6,745 nucleotides of DNA from a virus (taxonomy: Duplodnaviria; Heunggongvirae; Uroviricota; Caudoviricetes), in IMG/VR virus record IMGVR_UViG_2526164649_000019; one strand, written 5' to 3'. The notes under the pieces were generated by a model, which was given only the letters and a program-made list of their open reading frames with translations, was not told where the DNA came from and did not search any database. Positions 1 to 6,745 of this stretch are shown piece after piece; the stretch's first letter is position 1, and every line of letters begins with the position of its first letter. The translations under genes were made by a program, and so were the position numbers.

Positions 1-525
1 CTGCTGAACCAGACGTTCGCTCCTACAGCACCAAATCAGGTCTGGGTGGCGGACCTGACGTATGTTGCCACACAGGAGGGATGGTTGTACCTCGCTGGCA
101 TCAAAGATGTTTATACGTGCGAAATTGTCGGCTACGCCATGGGAGAGCGCATGACAAAAGAGCTGACAGGTAAAGCCCTGTTTATGGCGCTCAGGAGCCA
201 GCGCCCACCTGCCGGGCTAATCCACCACTCTGATCGAGGTTCACAGTACTGCGCATACGATTACCGGGTCATACAGGAGCAGTTTGGTCTGAAAACATCA
301 ATGTCGCGTAAAGGTAACTGTTACGACAACGCTCCGATGGAAAGCTTCTGGGGAACGCTGAAAAATGAGAGCCTGAGCCACTATCGTTTTAATAACCGGG
401 ATGAAGCCATCTCAGTAATACGGGAATACATTGAGATTTTCTACAATCGTCAGCGTCGTCACTCTCGTCTGGGGAATATCTCCCCGGCAGCCTTCAGGGA
501 AAAATATCATCAGATGGCTGCTTAA
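1..525 (+). CDS. IS3-family transposase OrfB, C-terminal catalytic (DDE/rve) portion; 5' end lies outside the window
   Basis: Frame is open from base 1 (LLNQTFAPTAPNQVWVADLTYV...) to TAA at 523-525. Contains rve-type transposase hallmarks: D in ADLTYV, HSDRGSQY, and GNCYDNAPMESFW with the catalytic E context. Family assignment is by motif recall, not a search. Confidence 0.85.
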   Translation: MLNQTFAPTAPNQVWVADLTYVATQEGWLYLAGIKDVYTCEIVGYAMGERMTKELTGKALFMALRSQRPPAGLIHHSDRGSQYCAYDYRVIQEQFGLKTSMSRKGNCYDNAPMESFWGTLKNESLSHYRFNNRDEAISVIREYIEIFYNRQRRHSRLGNISPAAFREKYHQMAA

Positions 526-562
526 AAAAGAACAAATGGTAGTGTCCGCTATTGCCAGTACA
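1..562 (+). mobile_element. Right-hand part of an IS3-family insertion sequence (possibly IS150-group); tentative right terminus ...GCCAGTACA ending at 562
   Basis: The transposase C-terminus ends at 525. IS3-family ends finish in CA, and the reverse complement of 556-562 reads TGTACTG, which matches my recollection of the IS150 terminus. The exact boundary is uncertain by tens of bp. Confidence 0.45.
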
Positions 563-837
563 CCTCACAACGCCATCCTGACAAGCGTTTTATCTTCAAC
601 GGGAATGAGATATGGAAACGTGGAGAATCAACCACAGAGTATACCCGCGCACACCAGCGAACAATCAGACGACTGCGCAGACTCATCGCCAGGAAACAGT
701 ATACAGAAAAATGGTTCAGAAAATATGACACATGGAGCGCCGGATATTACGAACTGATGGCAACAAAACCATTCTGACGTAAACGAAATTAACCATGACG
801 CAATTAAATAAGGCAAGCCGAATACATCAGGAGGACC

Positions 838-1026
838 ATGAACATTTATTTCAGAATAGTTATATCACTGGCAATTATCGCATGTATTTACGGATTAATC
901 GTTCCGGCCCTCATATCAATGAAGGATACGGTAGCAGTGATTTCTGGCTTTGCTCTGGCGTGTCTGACCCCGCCCTGCATTTATGCCATTTATAAGGGTC
1001 TTTCTTTTTCTAAGGATAAAAGATGA
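838..1026 (+). CDS. Small (62 aa) membrane protein with two predicted transmembrane helices; translationally coupled to the downstream SPFH gene
   Basis: Shine-Dalgarno AGGAGG at 829-834, ATG at 838. Two hydrophobic segments (IVISLAIIACIYGLIVPALI and VAVISGFALACLTPPCIYAIY) and a basic C-terminal tail (KGLSFSKDKR), consistent with both termini in the cytoplasm. Its stop TGA (1024-1026) overlaps the next ATG (1023-1025). Confidence 0.7.
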   Translation: MNIYFRIVISLAIIACIYGLIVPALISMKDTVAVISGFALACLTPPCIYAIYKGLSFSKDKR

Positions 1027-1850
1027 AAAAAGTTATTCCTGCTTTAGCCCTTGTTCTGCTGACCACCGGACTTGTCGGTTGCGATCGCGTTGAGCCTGGT
1101 AATGTTGGCATCAAGGTAAACAAACTGGGCGACGATAAAGGCGTCGGAGAAGTGGTCGGTGTTGGGCGCTACTGGACGGGATGGAACACTGAGGTTTACA
1201 TCTTCCCGACCTTCAAACAAATGAAGACCTACGATGAGCCATTCAGCTTCCAGATGAGTGACGGTACAACCATCGGCTATCACATCGGCGTGGCCTACAA
1301 AGTTGATCCATCCAAAGTTACCACAGTCTTTCAGACCTACCGCAAAGGCGTGGACGACATTACCGACACCGACCTGCGCCAGAAGATAGCCGACGCACTC
1401 AACCGACTGGCCAGCAAAATGACCACCGACAAATTTATCGACGGCGGCAAGTCTGAGCTGCTGGATGCAGCTCTTAAAGACATTCAGGAAGAAATGACGC
1501 CCATCGGTATTCAGGTAATGAGCCTCTCATATGTGGGTAAGCCGGAGTACCCGCCTACTGTTATCGACAGCATTAATGCCAAAGTCACGGCGAACCAGAA
1601 AACCCTGCAACGCGAGCAGGAAGTAAAACAGCGCGAAGCGGAAGCCAACATGTTGCGCGCGGAAGCTGCCGGACAGGCAGATGCGATTCGCACAAAAGCC
1701 CAGGCCGAAGCCGATGCTATTCGTTTACGCGGTGAAGCTCTGCGCCAGAACCCAAACGTTATGGAGCTGGAAGCCATCAACAAGTGGAACGGTACACTGC
1801 CGCAATACATGACCAGCGGTGCCAACACACCATTTATTCAGGTTAAGTAA
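1023..1850 (+). CDS. SPFH/band-7 (stomatin/prohibitin/HflKC-like) lipoprotein, predicted inner-membrane anchored with a periplasmic SPFH domain and a C-terminal Ala/Glu-rich coiled coil
   Basis: Signal peptide MKKVIPALALVLLTTGLVGC with lipobox L-V-G-C, followed by Asp at +2 (CD), the classical Lol-avoidance inner-membrane retention signal. SPFH-like core (GRYWTGWNTEVYIFPTFKQ ... IGIQVMSLSYVGKPEYPPTVIDSINAKV) and a heptad-like tail (QREQEVKQREAEANMLRAEAAGQADAIRTKAQAEADAIRLRGEALRQ). RBS AGGA at about 1011-1014. Confidence 0.88.
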   Translation: MKKVIPALALVLLTTGLVGCDRVEPGNVGIKVNKLGDDKGVGEVVGVGRYWTGWNTEVYIFPTFKQMKTYDEPFSFQMSDGTTIGYHIGVAYKVDPSKVTTVFQTYRKGVDDITDTDLRQKIADALNRLASKMTTDKFIDGGKSELLDAALKDIQEEMTPIGIQVMSLSYVGKPEYPPTVIDSINAKVTANQKTLQREQEVKQREAEANMLRAEAAGQADAIRTKAQAEADAIRLRGEALRQNPNVMELEAINKWNGTLPQYMTSGANTPFIQVK

Positions 1851-1857
1851 TACATAT

Positions 1858-1878
1858 GCCCGGTATTACACGCCGGGC
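1858..1878 (+). other. GC-rich stem-loop (6-bp stem GCCCGG/CCGGGC, 9-nt loop) in the spacer between the SPFH and ORF6N genes; no downstream U-tract
   Basis: Inverted repeat read directly at 1858-1863 and 1873-1878. It is followed by GTCTGGAG rather than a T-run, so it is not a canonical intrinsic terminator; it could be an RNA-stability or processing hairpin. Confidence 0.35.
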
Positions 1879-1893
1879 TGTCTGGAGATAAAA

Positions 1894-2643
1894 ATGAATA
1901 CTGTAACCATCAACAACAAACAGTTTCCGGTAATCGAATATCGCGGTCAGCGTGTTGTGACGCTGGCGATGATTGATGAAGTCCACCAGCGACCGGAAGG
2001 AACCGCGCGTGCAGCATTCAACCGAAACCGTGAGCATTTCATCAGCGGTGTGGATTATGCCGAATTAGGTGCGGACGTAATACGTACGGACCTCCCGGAA
2101 GGAACATTCTCTAAATTTGCACCATCGGGGATTGTACTTTTTGAATCAGGTTACCTGATGTTGACGAAGCCATTCAATGACGCCCTTGCCTGGCAGGTTC
2201 AGCGCGAACTGGTTAACAGCTACTTCCGCACTCGCACACCGCTAACGGAAATCGAGATGATCGCTGCGATAGCCGCCGACGCTGTTCGTCAACAGAAGCG
2301 CCTGAATCATGTGGAAGAACAGCTCGAAACAGTCACAGAAGCGGTGGAAACCATCAAACGCGGAAATATGCGCGCCGGATATGTCGGTTACCGCCAGGTG
2401 GTAGCCAAAAGTGGAATGAGTGACGCCAAGTGTCGGAATCTGGTGAACGCATATCAAATTCCTACAGACACCCACGAATTCATGACTCCGGACGGTCTGT
2501 TGTCTCGCAGGGCTATCGTCGAGCTTGAGCCATTTATGGCGGCGTTCCACCAAATGATGTCAGAGGCTGAACCACACGGCACACGCTGGTATCACCCGAA
2601 GATGGGGCTTTTCCAGGTGATCGGATGGGAGGATAAAGCATGA
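1894..2643 (+). CDS. ORF6N / KilA-N-like DNA-binding domain protein (antirepressor-like phage regulator), 249 aa
   Basis: RBS GGAG at 1884-1887, ATG at 1894 (MNTVTINNKQFPVIEYRGQRVVTLAMIDEV...). N-terminal region carries the pattern typical of ORF6N/KilA-N domains (RNREHFISGVDYAEL ... VLFESGYLMLTKPFND). The C-terminal half is helical and of unknown function. The ORF track's longer version (from 1819) overlaps the SPFH gene and lacks an RBS. Confidence 0.8.
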   Translation: MNTVTINNKQFPVIEYRGQRVVTLAMIDEVHQRPEGTARAAFNRNREHFISGVDYAELGADVIRTDLPEGTFSKFAPSGIVLFESGYLMLTKPFNDALAWQVQRELVNSYFRTRTPLTEIEMIAAIAADAVRQQKRLNHVEEQLETVTEAVETIKRGNMRAGYVGYRQVVAKSGMSDAKCRNLVNAYQIPTDTHEFMTPDGLLSRRAIVELEPFMAAFHQMMSEAEPHGTRWYHPKMGLFQVIGWEDKA

Positions 2644-3209
2644 TCATCCAGTCAAAACTTATTCGCGCCGCTCTGGTGTGCGCTGCTAAAAACGACGTTC
2701 GTTATTACCTGAACGGTCTTCACATCACGCCGAAACATATTGAGGCAACCAATGGTTCCGTGGCACTGCGCATGGCTCACGGCATCCGGACGAAGAAAAA
2801 CATCATTGTCCAGTTCGAAGGGGGCGTCCCGGCCAAAGCCGAAACGACAGAGCTGATTTTTAGTAAAGAGCCGATCGCTGTTCATCGCGACCAGTTTCAG
2901 CGACGACTGTCCATTACCGGCATTAAACTGGTGGACGGTTGTTTTCCGGATTTGGATCGCATCATTCCGAAAAAGTTTGACCGCTGTACTCACCCGGTGC
3001 TCCAGGCGGGTTACCTGAGTTATCCAGAGAAGATGTTTGGTCGTGAGCGTAAATTTATTCCCGTCCAGTTACGTCCCTCCGGTGACGGGCAAGCGGTCAG
3101 AATTCAGTTTGATTCCATCATCAACTCAATGTATGGCAATCCTGAATTTGTTGTGATGCCTTGTCGTGATCATGGCGATTTCAACGTGGCTCAGGAGCAT
3201 CCGGAATGA
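2640..3209 (+). CDS. Truncated beta-sliding-clamp (DnaN-like) protein, 189 aa: clamp domain II-like region plus a shortened domain III-like region
   Basis: RBS GGGAGG at 2627-2632; the ATG at 2640 overlaps the upstream stop (ATGA). Motifs colinear with E. coli DnaN as I recall it: NDVRYYLNG, ATNGSVALRM (cf. ATDGHRLAV), IKLVDGCFPDLDRIIPKK (cf. SKLVDGRFPDYRRVLPK) and EFVVMPCRD (cf. the C-terminal AYVVMPMRL). The CDS call is firm; the homology call is less so (about 0.6). Confidence 0.8.
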   Translation: MIIQSKLIRAALVCAAKNDVRYYLNGLHITPKHIEATNGSVALRMAHGIRTKKNIIVQFEGGVPAKAETTELIFSKEPIAVHRDQFQRRLSITGIKLVDGCFPDLDRIIPKKFDRCTHPVLQAGYLSYPEKMFGRERKFIPVQLRPSGDGQAVRIQFDSIINSMYGNPEFVVMPCRDHGDFNVAQEHPE

Positions 3210-3244
3210 AAATCGAATACCAGGACGCCGCAGGAGGTGAATCA

Positions 3245-3328
3245 ATGAGCTGGCCTGATGCAATCGTAACTCTGGGGATGGTATTCGCAGTAGCGTTTGT
3301 TGTGTACTCGATTTGTCGATGGGGATAA
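3245..3328 (+). CDS. Candidate 27-aa hydrophobic single-helix membrane peptide (MSWPDAIVTLGMVFAVAFVVYSICRWG)
   Basis: Near-consensus Shine-Dalgarno AGGAGGT at 3232-3238 with a 6-7 nt spacer to the ATG at 3245. It fills the gap between the flanking genes exactly (upstream stop 3209, downstream start 3333). Too short for the ORF track. Confidence 0.45.
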   Translation: MSWPDAIVTLGMVFAVAFVVYSICRWG

Positions 3329-3332
3329 CCAC

Positions 3333-3575
3333 ATGTTCGCTTTGATTCAACGCGGGCAGATATACACAGACAGAGCCGGATACCCAGTAGAAATTACTCG
3401 CAGTACTGAGCACTCAGTGTTCTTTCGGAGGATGGACGGACGTACCGGGCGAGTACGCATCGGTGAATTCAGTAGCCTGTTCGAGCATATTGACCACCTG
3501 GAATATCACAAGATTCTGGCTGAAACAGAACAAGAAAAGCACCTGAAGAAATTACGCGCAATGCAAAGGAAGTAA
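3333..3575 (+). CDS. Small conserved-looking phage protein, 80 aa, basic C-terminal helix (possibly a DUF4222-type prophage protein; unverified)
   Basis: ATG at 3333, in frame with the ORF-track ORF 3297-3575; the upstream part of that ORF overlaps the peptide gene, so the internal start is preferred. Weak RBS GGGGA. Sits in the operon context just upstream of the integrase region. Confidence 0.6.
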   Translation: MFALIQRGQIYTDRAGYPVEITRSTEHSVFFRRMDGRTGRVRIGEFSSLFEHIDHLEYHKILAETEQEKHLKKLRAMQRK

Positions 3576-3578
3576 AAA

Positions 3579-3725
3579 ATGAATAAAGCGTTTGAGCTAT
3601 GGGTCCACCAGCGTTACGGCAACCACTACGACCTGACGCGAGATGTTGACGGTTTCTACTGTCGTGAAATTGTGAAACGAATGTTTGAGGTCTGGTGCCA
3701 CTGCCGTGGGCTGAGTGTTGTGTGA
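3579..3725 (+). CDS. Small hypothetical protein, 48 aa, with three Cys and one His (MNKAFELWVHQRYGNHYDLTRDVDGFYCREIVKRMFEVWCHCRGLSVV)
   Basis: RBS AGGAAG at 3567-3572, ATG at 3579, 3 nt after the upstream stop. Same strand and tight packing as its neighbours. No function recognisable. Confidence 0.5.
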   Translation: MNKAFELWVHQRYGNHYDLTRDVDGFYCREIVKRMFEVWCHCRGLSVV

Positions 3726-3733
3726 GGTAATGC

Positions 3734-3896
3734 ATGGGCAATGTGATTCAACTGGCTCCCAATGAATGGGTTTGTGAAAGCGTTCTAATCGCAATTACCG
3801 GGCTCAAACCAGGCACAATTCTTCGGGCCCGGAAAGAATGCTGGATGGTTGGAAGAGAGTATATTCACGTATCACCAGACGGTAATCCAAAGCCTT
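3734..3896 (+). pseudogene. int: 5' segment of the tyrosine integrase gene (N-terminal excisionase/AlpA-like HTH DNA-binding domain), cut off from the rest of the gene by an IS911-like insertion; alternatively a separate xis
   Basis: RBS GAGGT at 3725-3729, ATG at 3734. Product MGNVIQLAPNEWVCESVLIAITGLKPGTILRARKECWMVGREYIHVSPDGNPKP resembles Xis/AlpA winged-helix proteins (cf. lambda Xis ...RRWVRECRIF...GREYLF). From 3898 the frame runs into the IS inverted repeat. Removing the IS and one copy of CTT joins this frame in-frame to the integrase body at 5149. Confidence 0.55.
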
Positions 3897-3897
3897 C

Positions 3898-5104
<1,207 letters not shown>

Positions 5105-5109
5105 ATCAC

Positions 5110-5145
5110 CTCTGTTCAGGTGGCCAAATTCAGTGTGCCACTTCA
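5110..5145. repeat. IS911-like left inverted repeat (IRL)
   Basis: Reverse complement reads TGAAGTGGCACACTGAATTTGGCCACCTGAACAGAG; 24 of 36 positions match the right inverted repeat. Confidence 0.8.
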
Positions 5146-5148
5146 CTT

Positions 5149-6239
5149 TTGGGGTAAGTAAAAAAGAAATTACGGTGAAGGAACTTGAAGAAAAGTGGCT
5201 GGATCTGAAACGAATGGAAATCTCTGCAAATGCATTCAATCGCTATGAATCCGTTGCAAGAACGATGGTTCCGAAAATTGGAGGCGGCAGACTGGTGTCA
5301 TCGGTAACCAAAGAGGAATTGCTGTATATCAGGAAAGATTTGCTGACCGGGTATCAGAATTCAACGAAAAACAAAGCAGCAGCAAAAGGACGGAGCGTCG
5401 TTACTGTAAATTATTACATGACGACAATCGCTGGAATGTTTCAGTTTGCTGCAGATCACGGTTACTTAGAAGCAAATCCCTTCCAGGGAATTAAGCCTCT
5501 TAAAAGAGCCAGGGCAGAGCCAGATCCGCTAACTCGTGACGAATTTATTCGCCTGATAGATGCTTGCCGACATCAGCAGACGAAAAACCTGTGGTCATTG
5601 GCTGTGTACACAGGAATGCGTCACGGTGAACTGGTCTCCCTGGCCTGGGAAGATATCGATCTGAAAGCAGGAACTATTACTATCAGGCGCAATTATACGA
5701 AACTCGGTGAGTTCACTCTACCTAAAACTGAAGCAAGTACAAACAGGGTTGTGCATCTTATCCAGCCCGCTATCAGTGTCCTGAAAAATCAGGCTGAAAT
5801 GACAAGACTGGGTAAGCAGCACCACATCAAGGTTCAACTACGTGAATATGGACGTTCAGTGAATCATGAATGTACTTTCGTATTTAACCCCCAGGTGGTT
5901 AGAAAAAGCAAACAGGTAGGTTTTATCTACAAGGTAGATTCCATTGGCGACTCATGGGAAACAGCCATTAAGCGTGCGGGCATCAGGCACCGGAAAGCAT
6001 ACCAGTCACGACACACTTATGCGTGCTGGTCATTATCTGCCGGAGCAAACCCAAGCTTCATTGCCAGCCAGATGGGCCATGCAAGTGCCCAGATGGTGTT
6101 CAATGTATACGGAGCATGGATGACTGACAGTAATGCAGAACAGATCGCAATGCTGAATCAGAAGCTGGCAGATTATGTCTCAATGATGTCCCATGGTCAC
6201 CAAAGTGACACAAGAGACTTATTAAAATCAGTGGGTTAG
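5149..6239 (+). pseudogene. int: 3' segment of a phage tyrosine integrase (core-binding plus catalytic domain), lacking its own start because of the IS911-like insertion
   Basis: Tyrosine-recombinase motifs: Arg in TGMRHGEL (codon 5619-5621), box II region SRHTYACW...GH (6009-6020), and candidate nucleophile Tyr in FNVYGAWM (codon 6108-6110). Stop TAG at 6237-6239. There is no in-frame start between the IS end and the conserved region; the ORF-track start at 5073 lies inside the IS. Confidence 0.85.
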
Positions 6240-6265: not shown

Positions 6266-6745
6266 GTGGAGGGCAACACCACGCTTTACGCCCTGCCGAA
6301 ACCCGAGGTTGTCCTGCGCTGGCGTGAACAGACCACAGATGACTTCCGCTTCTGTTTTAAGTTTCCGGCGACCATTTCGCATCAGGCAGCATTACGACAT
6401 TGCGATGATTTAGTGACTGAATTTTTGACCCGCATGTCACCGTTGGCTCCGCGCATTGGGCAATACTGGCTGCAACTGCCTGCCACATTCGGCCCACGGG
6501 AGCTGCCTGCGCTTTGGCATTTTCTCGATTCTCTCCCTGGCGAATTTAATTATGGTGTGGAAGTCCGCCATCCACAGTTTTTCGCCAAAGGGGAAGAGGA
6601 ACAAACGCTTAATCGCGGTTTACATCAGCGCGGCGTTAATCGGGTGATTTTAGACAGCCGCCCGGTTCATGCATCACGTCCACACAGTGAAGCTATTCGC
6701 GACGCTCAACGAAAAAACCTAAAGTTCCGGTACATGCTGTACTGA
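6251..6745 (+). pseudogene. yecE: 3' portion of the host gene yecE (DUF72 family), interrupted near its 5' end by the prophage; possibly also prematurely terminated at 6743-6745
   Basis: Frame reads ...RHVNCVEGNTTLYALPKPEVVLRWREQTTDDFRFCFKFPATISHQAAL..., which matches my recollection of E. coli YecE from about residue 30 onward. There is no ATG or RBS for this fragment (the ORF track begins it at GTG 6266). yecE is a documented integration site for lambdoid (including Stx) phages. Confidence 0.55.

Follow-up and report, generated by a model that had tools for sequence, protein, structure and literature searches.

The closest described counterparts of the locus analyzed here are the distal part of the pL operon of phage lambda, which carries small, tightly packed, non-essential and mosaic genes (ea8.5, ea22 and ea10), and the corresponding region of the Stx2e phage phiP27, with the genes L05 (encoding an SPFH lipoprotein), L04, L03, L02 (xis) and L01 (int). 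Here we describe a 6,745-nt stretch of DNA (hereafter, the window) from the tailed virus record IMGVR_UViG_2526164649_000019 and, specifically, seven small genes at positions 838-3725 (g1 to g7), which a preliminary description had taken for an accessory cassette stranded between an insertion sequence (IS) and an integrase gene. It is highly probable that 838-3725 represents the part nearest to the integrase of an early-left operon in a phiP27-like lambdoid prophage inserted in yecE, consisting of mosaic modules, and that this operon lost its promoter via IS600 and the integrity of its xis and int genes via IS911. Most likely, the seven genes are silent or weakly read through from IS600, and are subject to neutral decay rather than maintained as a selected cassette.

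The layout of the complete operon can be examined in intact relatives. Two such loci, L001 and L003 (from E. coli CAU16175 and FDAARGOS_1283, respectively), contain no IS in this region, and their genes are arranged on one strand in the order LexA-family repressor, helix-turn-helix gene, several small genes, ParE-like gene, a gene for a 130-amino acid (aa) protein, g1 to g7, xis, int and yecE; the chromosomal genes yecE-yecN-cmoA-cmoB lie downstream of int in the relatives, and some of these contain extra ead/Ea22-like and DUF551 genes among g1-g7. The repressor gene of L003 (LexA-family, CI-like) is closed by a terminator at 6956-6973, and the sole strong promoter on the plus strand (TTGACA-17-TATTAT, 11/12 matches, at 7004-7032) lies directly past this terminator. 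No terminator-like site was detected on the plus strand of L003 from that promoter through the end of int. Palindromes of the type ATCGnTAAACCGAT overlap the pL-like promoter, with a similar palindrome present in the divergent region between the repressor and cro, and the operator-like palindromes ATCGATAAACCGAT, ATCGGTAAACC and ATCGGAAAGCCGAT, located at L003 6985-7035 and 6195-6213, flank the promoter and are found again between the divergent repressor and cro genes, as expected for putative operators.

Together, the layout of promoter and terminator in L003 and the operator-like palindromes suggest, as far as sequence signals can tell, that in intact relatives g1-g7 represent the distal part of a repressor-controlled, pL-type early operon. 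The pL-like promoter is located about 2.2 kb upstream of g1, and the operon of roughly 6.8 kb would run from it via about eight small genes, g1-g7, xis and int, uninterrupted by a terminator. The single transcription unit proposed previously for the seven genes is supported by this arrangement. In L001, L003 and phiP27, the region has the immunity region on one side and xis-int on the other, all on the same strand, and in the window, g1-g7 and the remnants of xis and int (xis' and int') are all on the plus strand. This position, along with the presence of an ead/Ea22-like gene inside the region in some relatives, also upholds the earlier analogy with the accessory genes next to lambda int. By the same analogy, g1-g7 of a working phage would be silent in the lysogen and transcribed early after induction or infection, similarly to the ea/b-region genes of lambda. 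The proximal part of the operon also encodes a "ParE family toxin-like protein" (8604-8822 in both L001 and L003), the gene for which overlaps its neighbors and is deleted in the lineage of the window.

Within positions 1-4000 of the window, on both strands, no sigma-70-like sites were detected, compared with 4.4 expected from shuffled sequences; with relaxed settings, the best candidate in 441-880 reached only 8/12, and none inside the seven-gene region scored 9/12 or higher. This result bears out the earlier statement that there is no convincing sigma-70 promoter. Rfam was also searched at E <= 0.1 for RNA elements that might be concealed in the promoterless spacer or in other parts, with no match.

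The element upstream of the seven genes belongs to the IS3 family, as had been recognized, and so does a second element, IS911 (see below), given the near-identity of the two to named IS copies and their terminal repeats, TGAGG.../TGAAG...; in a relative, the upstream element is annotated as "IS3-like element IS600 family transposase", and the full IS600 copy in locus L007 is 1262 bp long. Its end, however, is at 567, as read from the right terminal repeat of IS600, rather than at 562. The 130-aa gene is interrupted by IS600 after nt 183, and the 5' half of this gene is absent from the three loci with the exact IS600 junction (L004, L005 and L007). The sequences flanking IS600, TAT on the left and CAA on the right, contain no 3-bp target duplication, and to the left of the element in the junction-sharing loci, there are a nin-region fragment, rusA and a Q-like antiterminator gene on the opposite strand. 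The missing duplication, the absent 5' half and the rusA/Q-like neighbors imply that IS600 marks a deletion, which would have taken away the promoter together with the first ~2 kb of the operon, as well as the regions for immunity and replication. The proposal that an IS had replaced the upstream content is thus supported by the loci with 99.8% identity to the window. In E. coli VL46 (L002, 6274-7537), by contrast, IS600 was inserted independently, as a simple insertion that has a CAT duplication of 3 bp, exactly at the start codon of g1 (equivalent to window 837-839). CFSAN029787 and RMDEC332/364, which, like VL46, are of the enteroinvasive E. coli (EIEC) type, share IS600 at the g1 start, with g1 parted from its Shine-Dalgarno motif.

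The second element, IS911, which matches annotated copies with 99.8% identity over 1248 bp, replaces 346 bp of phage sequence that comprised the terminal 73 nt of xis, about 218 nt of int and the spacer between the two genes. Here, too, the flanks, TTC (3895-3897) versus CTT (5146-5148), show no target duplication. We placed the ends of IS911 by inspection of the sequence and from the 99.8% match, given that the repeat search missed the terminal repeats, which share only 8 consecutive bases. The truncated xis' matches PF06806 at 82 bits, and int' is devoid of its start codon and of 74 N-terminal residues; none of the relative loci compared contains the window's junction between IS911 and int. 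The int gene of the window is a pseudogene, and the prophage is unable to excise because IS911 removed the 3' end of xis and the 5' end of int, an IS911-associated deletion that would have left behind a locked-in remnant. The preliminary description, which placed the cassette next to the integrase, passed over the truncated xis (an eighth co-oriented gene, at 3734-3897), IS911 and the 5' truncation of int. No working integrase adjoins the seven genes: the xis remnant and IS911 intervene, and int is without residues 1-74. Transcription of IS911 converges on the 3' end of the seven-gene region.

The IS600/phage and xis/IS911 junctions are both found at 99.8-99.9% identity in S. flexneri SFBU1023, E. 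coli ECMA0423 and a 32-kb viral contig, and these shared junctions suggest that the window comes from a Shigella/EIEC-like lineage. None of the complete E. coli genomes contains the whole window, with the best match at about 96% over 82%. Between the window (838-3897) and each of the Shigella-type copies (L004, L005 and L007), there are 6-7 coding differences, all nonsynonymous and none synonymous. Compared with the purifying selection seen among functional phages, this pattern fits relaxed selection after immobilization. In L004 (2627-3406; S. flexneri SFBU1023) and L005 (3057-3845; E. coli ECMA0423), the 3' end of g1 carries an extra insertion of ~780 bp with IS1-like ORFs, flanked by a 9-bp duplication of window 1014-1022; in both, int is missing downstream of IS911.

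Several points weigh against this reconstruction. The 0:7 count of synonymous to nonsynonymous changes is small, and the three comparisons overlap and are not independent. All seven ORFs are intact in the window, which could mean either recent immobilization or retained selection. IS600 is co-oriented with the seven genes, with no terminator between its orfB and g1, so that read-through is possible. The sole argument for silence is the missing consensus promoter, and the scan on which it draws covered sigma-70 consensus sites only. Finally, the window begins inside IS600, and the upstream deletion is deduced from the three junction-sharing loci rather than read in the window.

An alternative that we consider unlikely is that the genes are still expressed and selected in a Shigella-type host, via read-through from IS600 or a hybrid promoter that includes the TTGCCA of the IS600 right end. 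Besides the co-orientation with IS600, the lack of a plus-strand terminator between orfB and g1, and the intact ORFs, this possibility is favored by the persistence of the same junction in several lineages and by the sequence TTGCCA-16-CATCCT that spans the IS600 junction. This hybrid outward promoter, the best candidate identified, was nevertheless rejected because it matches at only 8/12 and has a poor -10 element. The persistence of the junction is accounted for by vertical descent, and continued selection fits poorly with the sister copies that carry IS1 in g1 and differ by nonsynonymous changes only, and with the convergent transcription of IS911 into the 3' end of the region.

The genes of the promoterless operon remnant, except for g5, are real genes rather than chance ORFs, as indicated by their low dN/dS values in comparisons with E. 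coli relatives, which range from 0.01 to 0.31 where divergence allows measurement (g2, 0.01 versus L002; g4, 0.19-0.25; g6, 0.10; g7, 0.11). The same-strand, tight packing noted previously is borne out by the ORF listing, with gaps of -4, 43, -4, -4, 4 and 3 nt between successive ORFs, all on the plus strand. A Shine-Dalgarno-like motif precedes each of the seven, the same seven genes were called by RefSeq annotators in E. coli relatives, and profile matches were obtained for 6 of the 7 (phrog_1130, PF01145 SPFH, PF10543 ORF6N, a DnaN-like profile, PF13973 DUF4222 and phrog_3871). The features of the window are listed in Table 1.

Table 1. Features of the 6,745-nt window, in order of position
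Feature	Position	Strand	Basis
IS600 (IS3 family), 3' part	1..567	+	orfB C-terminus 46-525; right terminal repeat ...CACCTCA ends at 567
130-aa hypothetical early-left gene (393 nt), 3' 190 nt, cut by IS600	568..757	+	aligns with L001 9002-9211, within CDS 8819-9211
g1, 62-aa small membrane protein, two hydrophobic segments	838..1026	+	phrog_1130; hydropathy
g2, 275-aa SPFH/Band 7 lipoprotein	1023..1850	+	PF01145; phrog_200
g3, 249-aa ORF6N-domain protein	1894..2643	+	PF10543; phrog_1726
g4, 189-aa truncated beta sliding clamp homolog	2640..3209	+	DnaN profile, AlphaFold2 model, Foldseek
g5, 40-aa ORF, one hydrophobic segment, doubtful gene	3206..3328	+	comparison with L003
g6, 80-aa DUF4222 protein	3333..3575	+	PF13973; phrog_285
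g7, 48-aa conserved small protein	3579..3725	+	phrog_3871
xis', truncated DUF1233 excisionase gene, residues 1-55 of 78 kept	3734..3897	+	PF06806; alignment to full-length L002 xis
IS911 (IS3 family), complete	3898..5145	-	99.8% identity to annotated IS911 copies
int', 5'-truncated tyrosine recombinase gene, residues 75-437 kept	5146..6239	+	PF00589; alignment to 437-aa L002 integrase
yecE (DUF72), prophage/chromosome junction, phiP27-type attachment locus	6266..6745	+	PF01904 at 115 bits

The first two genes appear to belong together. The product of g1, with its two hydrophobic segments, matches phrog_1130 at 6.6e-24 and has no Pfam match at E <= 0.01, hence no match to NfeD. The product of g2 matches PF01145 at 108.3 bits (cut-off, 23.6; 6e-31) over profile positions 2-176 of 176, and phrog_200 at 1e-114. 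It contains a signal peptide with the lipobox LVGC and Asp at position +2, and an HflK-like SPFH and coiled-coil region. At the sequence level, its solved relatives are HflK chains only (E 2e-4), and its scores against the NCBIfam equivalogs are far below the cut-offs (26 bits versus 134.4 for HflC and 23.5 versus 159.4 for HflK). In Lol sorting, Asp after the lipobox suggests retention in the inner membrane. The lipobox and Asp of g2 accordingly suggest an inner-membrane lipoprotein, and g1-g2 may form a membrane-scaffold module. The pair resembles HflK/HflC and the SPFH-NfeD operons in combining an SPFH domain and a coiled coil with a small membrane partner encoded by an overlapping gene. 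It differs from HflK/HflC in that g2 has a lipoprotein anchor in place of an N-terminal transmembrane (TM) helix, and from SPFH-NfeD operons in that the partner, g1, is only 62 aa long and has no NfeD match.

Similar pairs occur in other phages. In the P2-like phage P88 (L168, 2250-2453 and 2450-3280), a small ORF with 2 TM segments overlaps the start of an SPFH gene, and the pair is located in the early operon. In the P1-like phage MH422554.1 (L167, 2231-2467), a 78-aa ORF that is missing from the annotation and contains two hydrophobic segments extends into the start of the SPFH gene, mirroring g1-g2. The g1-g2 pair thus represents a widespread, uncharacterized family found on lambdoid, P2-like and P1-like backbones.

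The movement of this pair as a unit among the three backbones, the assignment of g1 to the PHROGs class "moron, auxiliary metabolic gene and host takeover" and the 80-nt spacer before g1 are compatible with the possibility that g1-g2 is a moron that is expressed in the lysogen from its own promoter, independently of the early operon, with a role in, for example, superinfection exclusion or membrane protection. In the P1-like locus, moreover, the annotated gene upstream of the pair has the opposite orientation, so that a separate transcript may start there. We regard this explanation as quite unlikely, given that there is no promoter-like site in 758-837 and no terminator after g2, that the P88 pair is arranged as in an operon, sharing 4 nt with the preceding early gene, and that no defense model was matched.

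The mosaic composition of the operon remnant is apparent from 240 viral loci obtained in three viral-contig scans centered on g2, g4 and g3 (the g2 and g4 sets include 80 loci each), in which each gene was scored. Whereas g1 is found alongside g2 in 80/80 g2-centered loci, g3-g5 are present in only about 19 of these 80, most of which run from g2 straight to g6-g7-xis-int, as in phiP27. Conversely, g1-g2 is absent from more than 50 of the 80 g4 loci, and g3 occurs without g4 in 49 loci. Among 5426 E. coli genomes, 51 contain at least 80% of the region, and 1060 contain some part of it. Identity to a single relative also shifts gene by gene (compared with L002, 92% for g2, 87% for g3 and 100% for g4-g6). 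What is inherited as a unit is either a single gene or the g1-g2 pair rather than all seven genes together, and the gene content is variable as in an early-left accessory region. The modules would be the g1-g2 membrane pair; g3, an ORF6N protein of a DNA-binding type; the putative half-clamp g4; the junction ORF g5; and g6 and g7, which usually accompany xis-int. A coupled g3-g4 pair was considered, since the g3 stop overlaps the g4 start and 75/75 g3 homologs in the first two sets of loci were followed by g4, and was rejected because that sample had been chosen via g2 or g4, whereas the g3-centered scan yielded the 49 loci lacking g4.

A search of PADLOC-DB v2 at E <= 0.01 with g1-g7 and the upstream fragment retrieved no families. 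That the seven genes form one anti-phage defense or host-takeover cassette next to the integrase is highly improbable: the co-oriented, tight packing in an integrase-proximal variable region and the plausible effector types among the products (a membrane module and a host-replication-factor look-alike) speak for it, but none of the seven has a PADLOC match, the genes assort independently in the 240 loci with only g1-g2 linked, and in intact phages they are part of a repressor-controlled operon and have no promoter of their own, whereas prophage defense genes are typically expressed in the lysogen. The coherent cassette of the preliminary description, and with it the idea of anti-phage cargo, is not sustained, given that the modules assort independently, the components are not co-inherited and no defense model was matched. 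The comparison with intact relatives, from which it had expected a verdict, shows that these are ordinary conserved phage genes, although not genes of known function: g1-g7 are widely conserved and already annotated in phiP27-like prophages and Stx phages.

Among the remaining modules, g3 matches PF10543 at 47.6 bits (cut-off, 27.8) and phrog_1726 at 7e-70, and has many different neighbors in the g3-centered scan; the designation "anti-repressor" would be a label taken from database family names only. The C-terminus of g3 (window 2590-2640) contains the highly conserved sequence WYHPKMGLFQ[VA]IGWE, which is kept even in a homolog of 52% identity and is conserved both in the presence and in the absence of g4. 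No family in Pfam, PHROGs, NCBIfam or PADLOC matched g5. In comparison with L003, this ORF consists of the first 7 codons (MKIEYQD...) of the gene located after g4 in other phages, joined to a small hydrophobic ORF that is normally located 5' of the DUF4222 gene, so that g5 is probably a chimeric by-product of a recombination junction and its status as a gene is doubtful. This mini-ORF, MSW[PR]DAIVTLG..SICRWG, is conserved just upstream of DUF4222 and overlaps the end of the DUF551 gene in another frame (L003 12800-12908). The product of g6 matches PF13973 at 56.7 bits (cut-off, 27) as well as phrog_285, and that of g7 matches phrog_3871 at 9e-35. In most loci, g7 is found with xis-int, usually directly upstream of xis.

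The g4 protein is a homolog of the beta sliding clamp. A profile of the g4 family (38 members) matches DnaN residues ~136-291 and the C-terminal VVMPxR strand, with E 1e-16 for DnaN chains from PDB. The AlphaFold2 model (pLDDT 91.6) comprises one full and one partial domain, corresponding to DnaN domain II and a part of domain III, and the best PDB matches found by Foldseek are all beta clamps. Compared with DnaN, g4 has about 1.5 domains instead of three, at 189 aa versus about 366 aa, and scores 21.2 bits against TIGR00663, for which the cut-off is 137.65. As it lacks domain I and the greater part of domain III, g4 is unlikely, judging from the model, to form a closed DnaN-like ring. Full-length structural matches to g4 (TM 0.75-0.81) are found among short clamp-like proteins of 180-210 aa from phages of Pantoea, Serratia and other phages. 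Such proteins are common in phages, where they are labeled merely "DNA polymerase III beta subunit".

The pocket of the beta clamp that accommodates clamp-binding motifs, with its subsites I and II, consists of 18 residues as listed in a review (PMC11139829). In the g4 family, 15 of the 18 are alignable, and 11 of these 15 are at least 90% conserved (hypergeometric P = 8e-7); the pocket residues N320, Y323 and V344 have no counterpart in g4. At residue 40, the equivalent of His175, which is retained in 92% of the family, Ser is found in the window and in the identical VL46 copy. It is a reasonable idea that g4 is a half-clamp that retains the pocket and may bind clamp-binding motifs. A ligand within the seven-gene set was sought and rejected: no Q-type motif is present in any of the proteins, and the KMGLF of g3 is equally conserved in the absence of g4 and belongs to a generally conserved segment.

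From these features, a tentative and rather doubtful scenario can be outlined for single modules, as opposed to the entire set. Early after induction, g4, as a half-clamp that does not encircle DNA, might sequester or redirect host proteins with clamp-binding motifs (Pol III alpha, clamp-loader delta, Hda, translesion polymerases or MutS/L); in parallel, g1-g2 might form an HflK/C-like SPFH assembly on the periplasmic face of the inner membrane that modulates FtsH or other membrane proteins, as does the pL-encoded FtsH inhibitor CIII of lambda. If this is true, the g4 half-clamp would be a takeover or replication-control device. Either way, it represents a widespread, uncharacterized family of half-size beta-clamp homologs. 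In the literature library that was searched, there was no functional study that addresses SPFH lipoproteins, ORF6N proteins or truncated clamp proteins of phages as factors of defense or takeover.

As a discovery, the region carries little weight. It is a textbook case of the IS expansion of the Shigella type that immobilizes and beheads prophages, and an example of mosaic accessory genes at the int-proximal end of lambdoid early operons. The region is already annotated and ordinary, and the g4 half-clamp and the g1-g2 pair are the only leads. The value of the analysis is in annotation: the "orphan cassette" is best described as a promoterless remnant of a phiP27-like prophage rather than as a defense-island candidate.

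Among described phages, lambda provides the general template. In its pL distal region, the genes have the same position and strand relative to the repressor, pL, xis and int, and the same overall character as g1-g7. The differences are that no sequence homology was found between g1-g7 and lambda genes and that no exo/bet/gam recombination genes are annotated in the operon of the relatives. Because the window shares with phiP27 the type of integrase and excisionase, the attachment site in yecE and the SPFH gene adjoining xis-int, its backbone can be classified, on the available sequence, as phiP27-like. The g1-g2 module is about 90-92% identical at the nucleotide level to those of phiP27 and the yecE-integrated Stx2a phages, which also have the same g6-g7-xis arrangement. 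PhiP27 differs in having L04/L03 (DUF5406-type genes in relatives) in place of g3, g4 and g5 of the window, and the window copy, in turn, differs from phiP27 in being disrupted by ISs and devoid of the promoter, the immunity region and functional xis and int.

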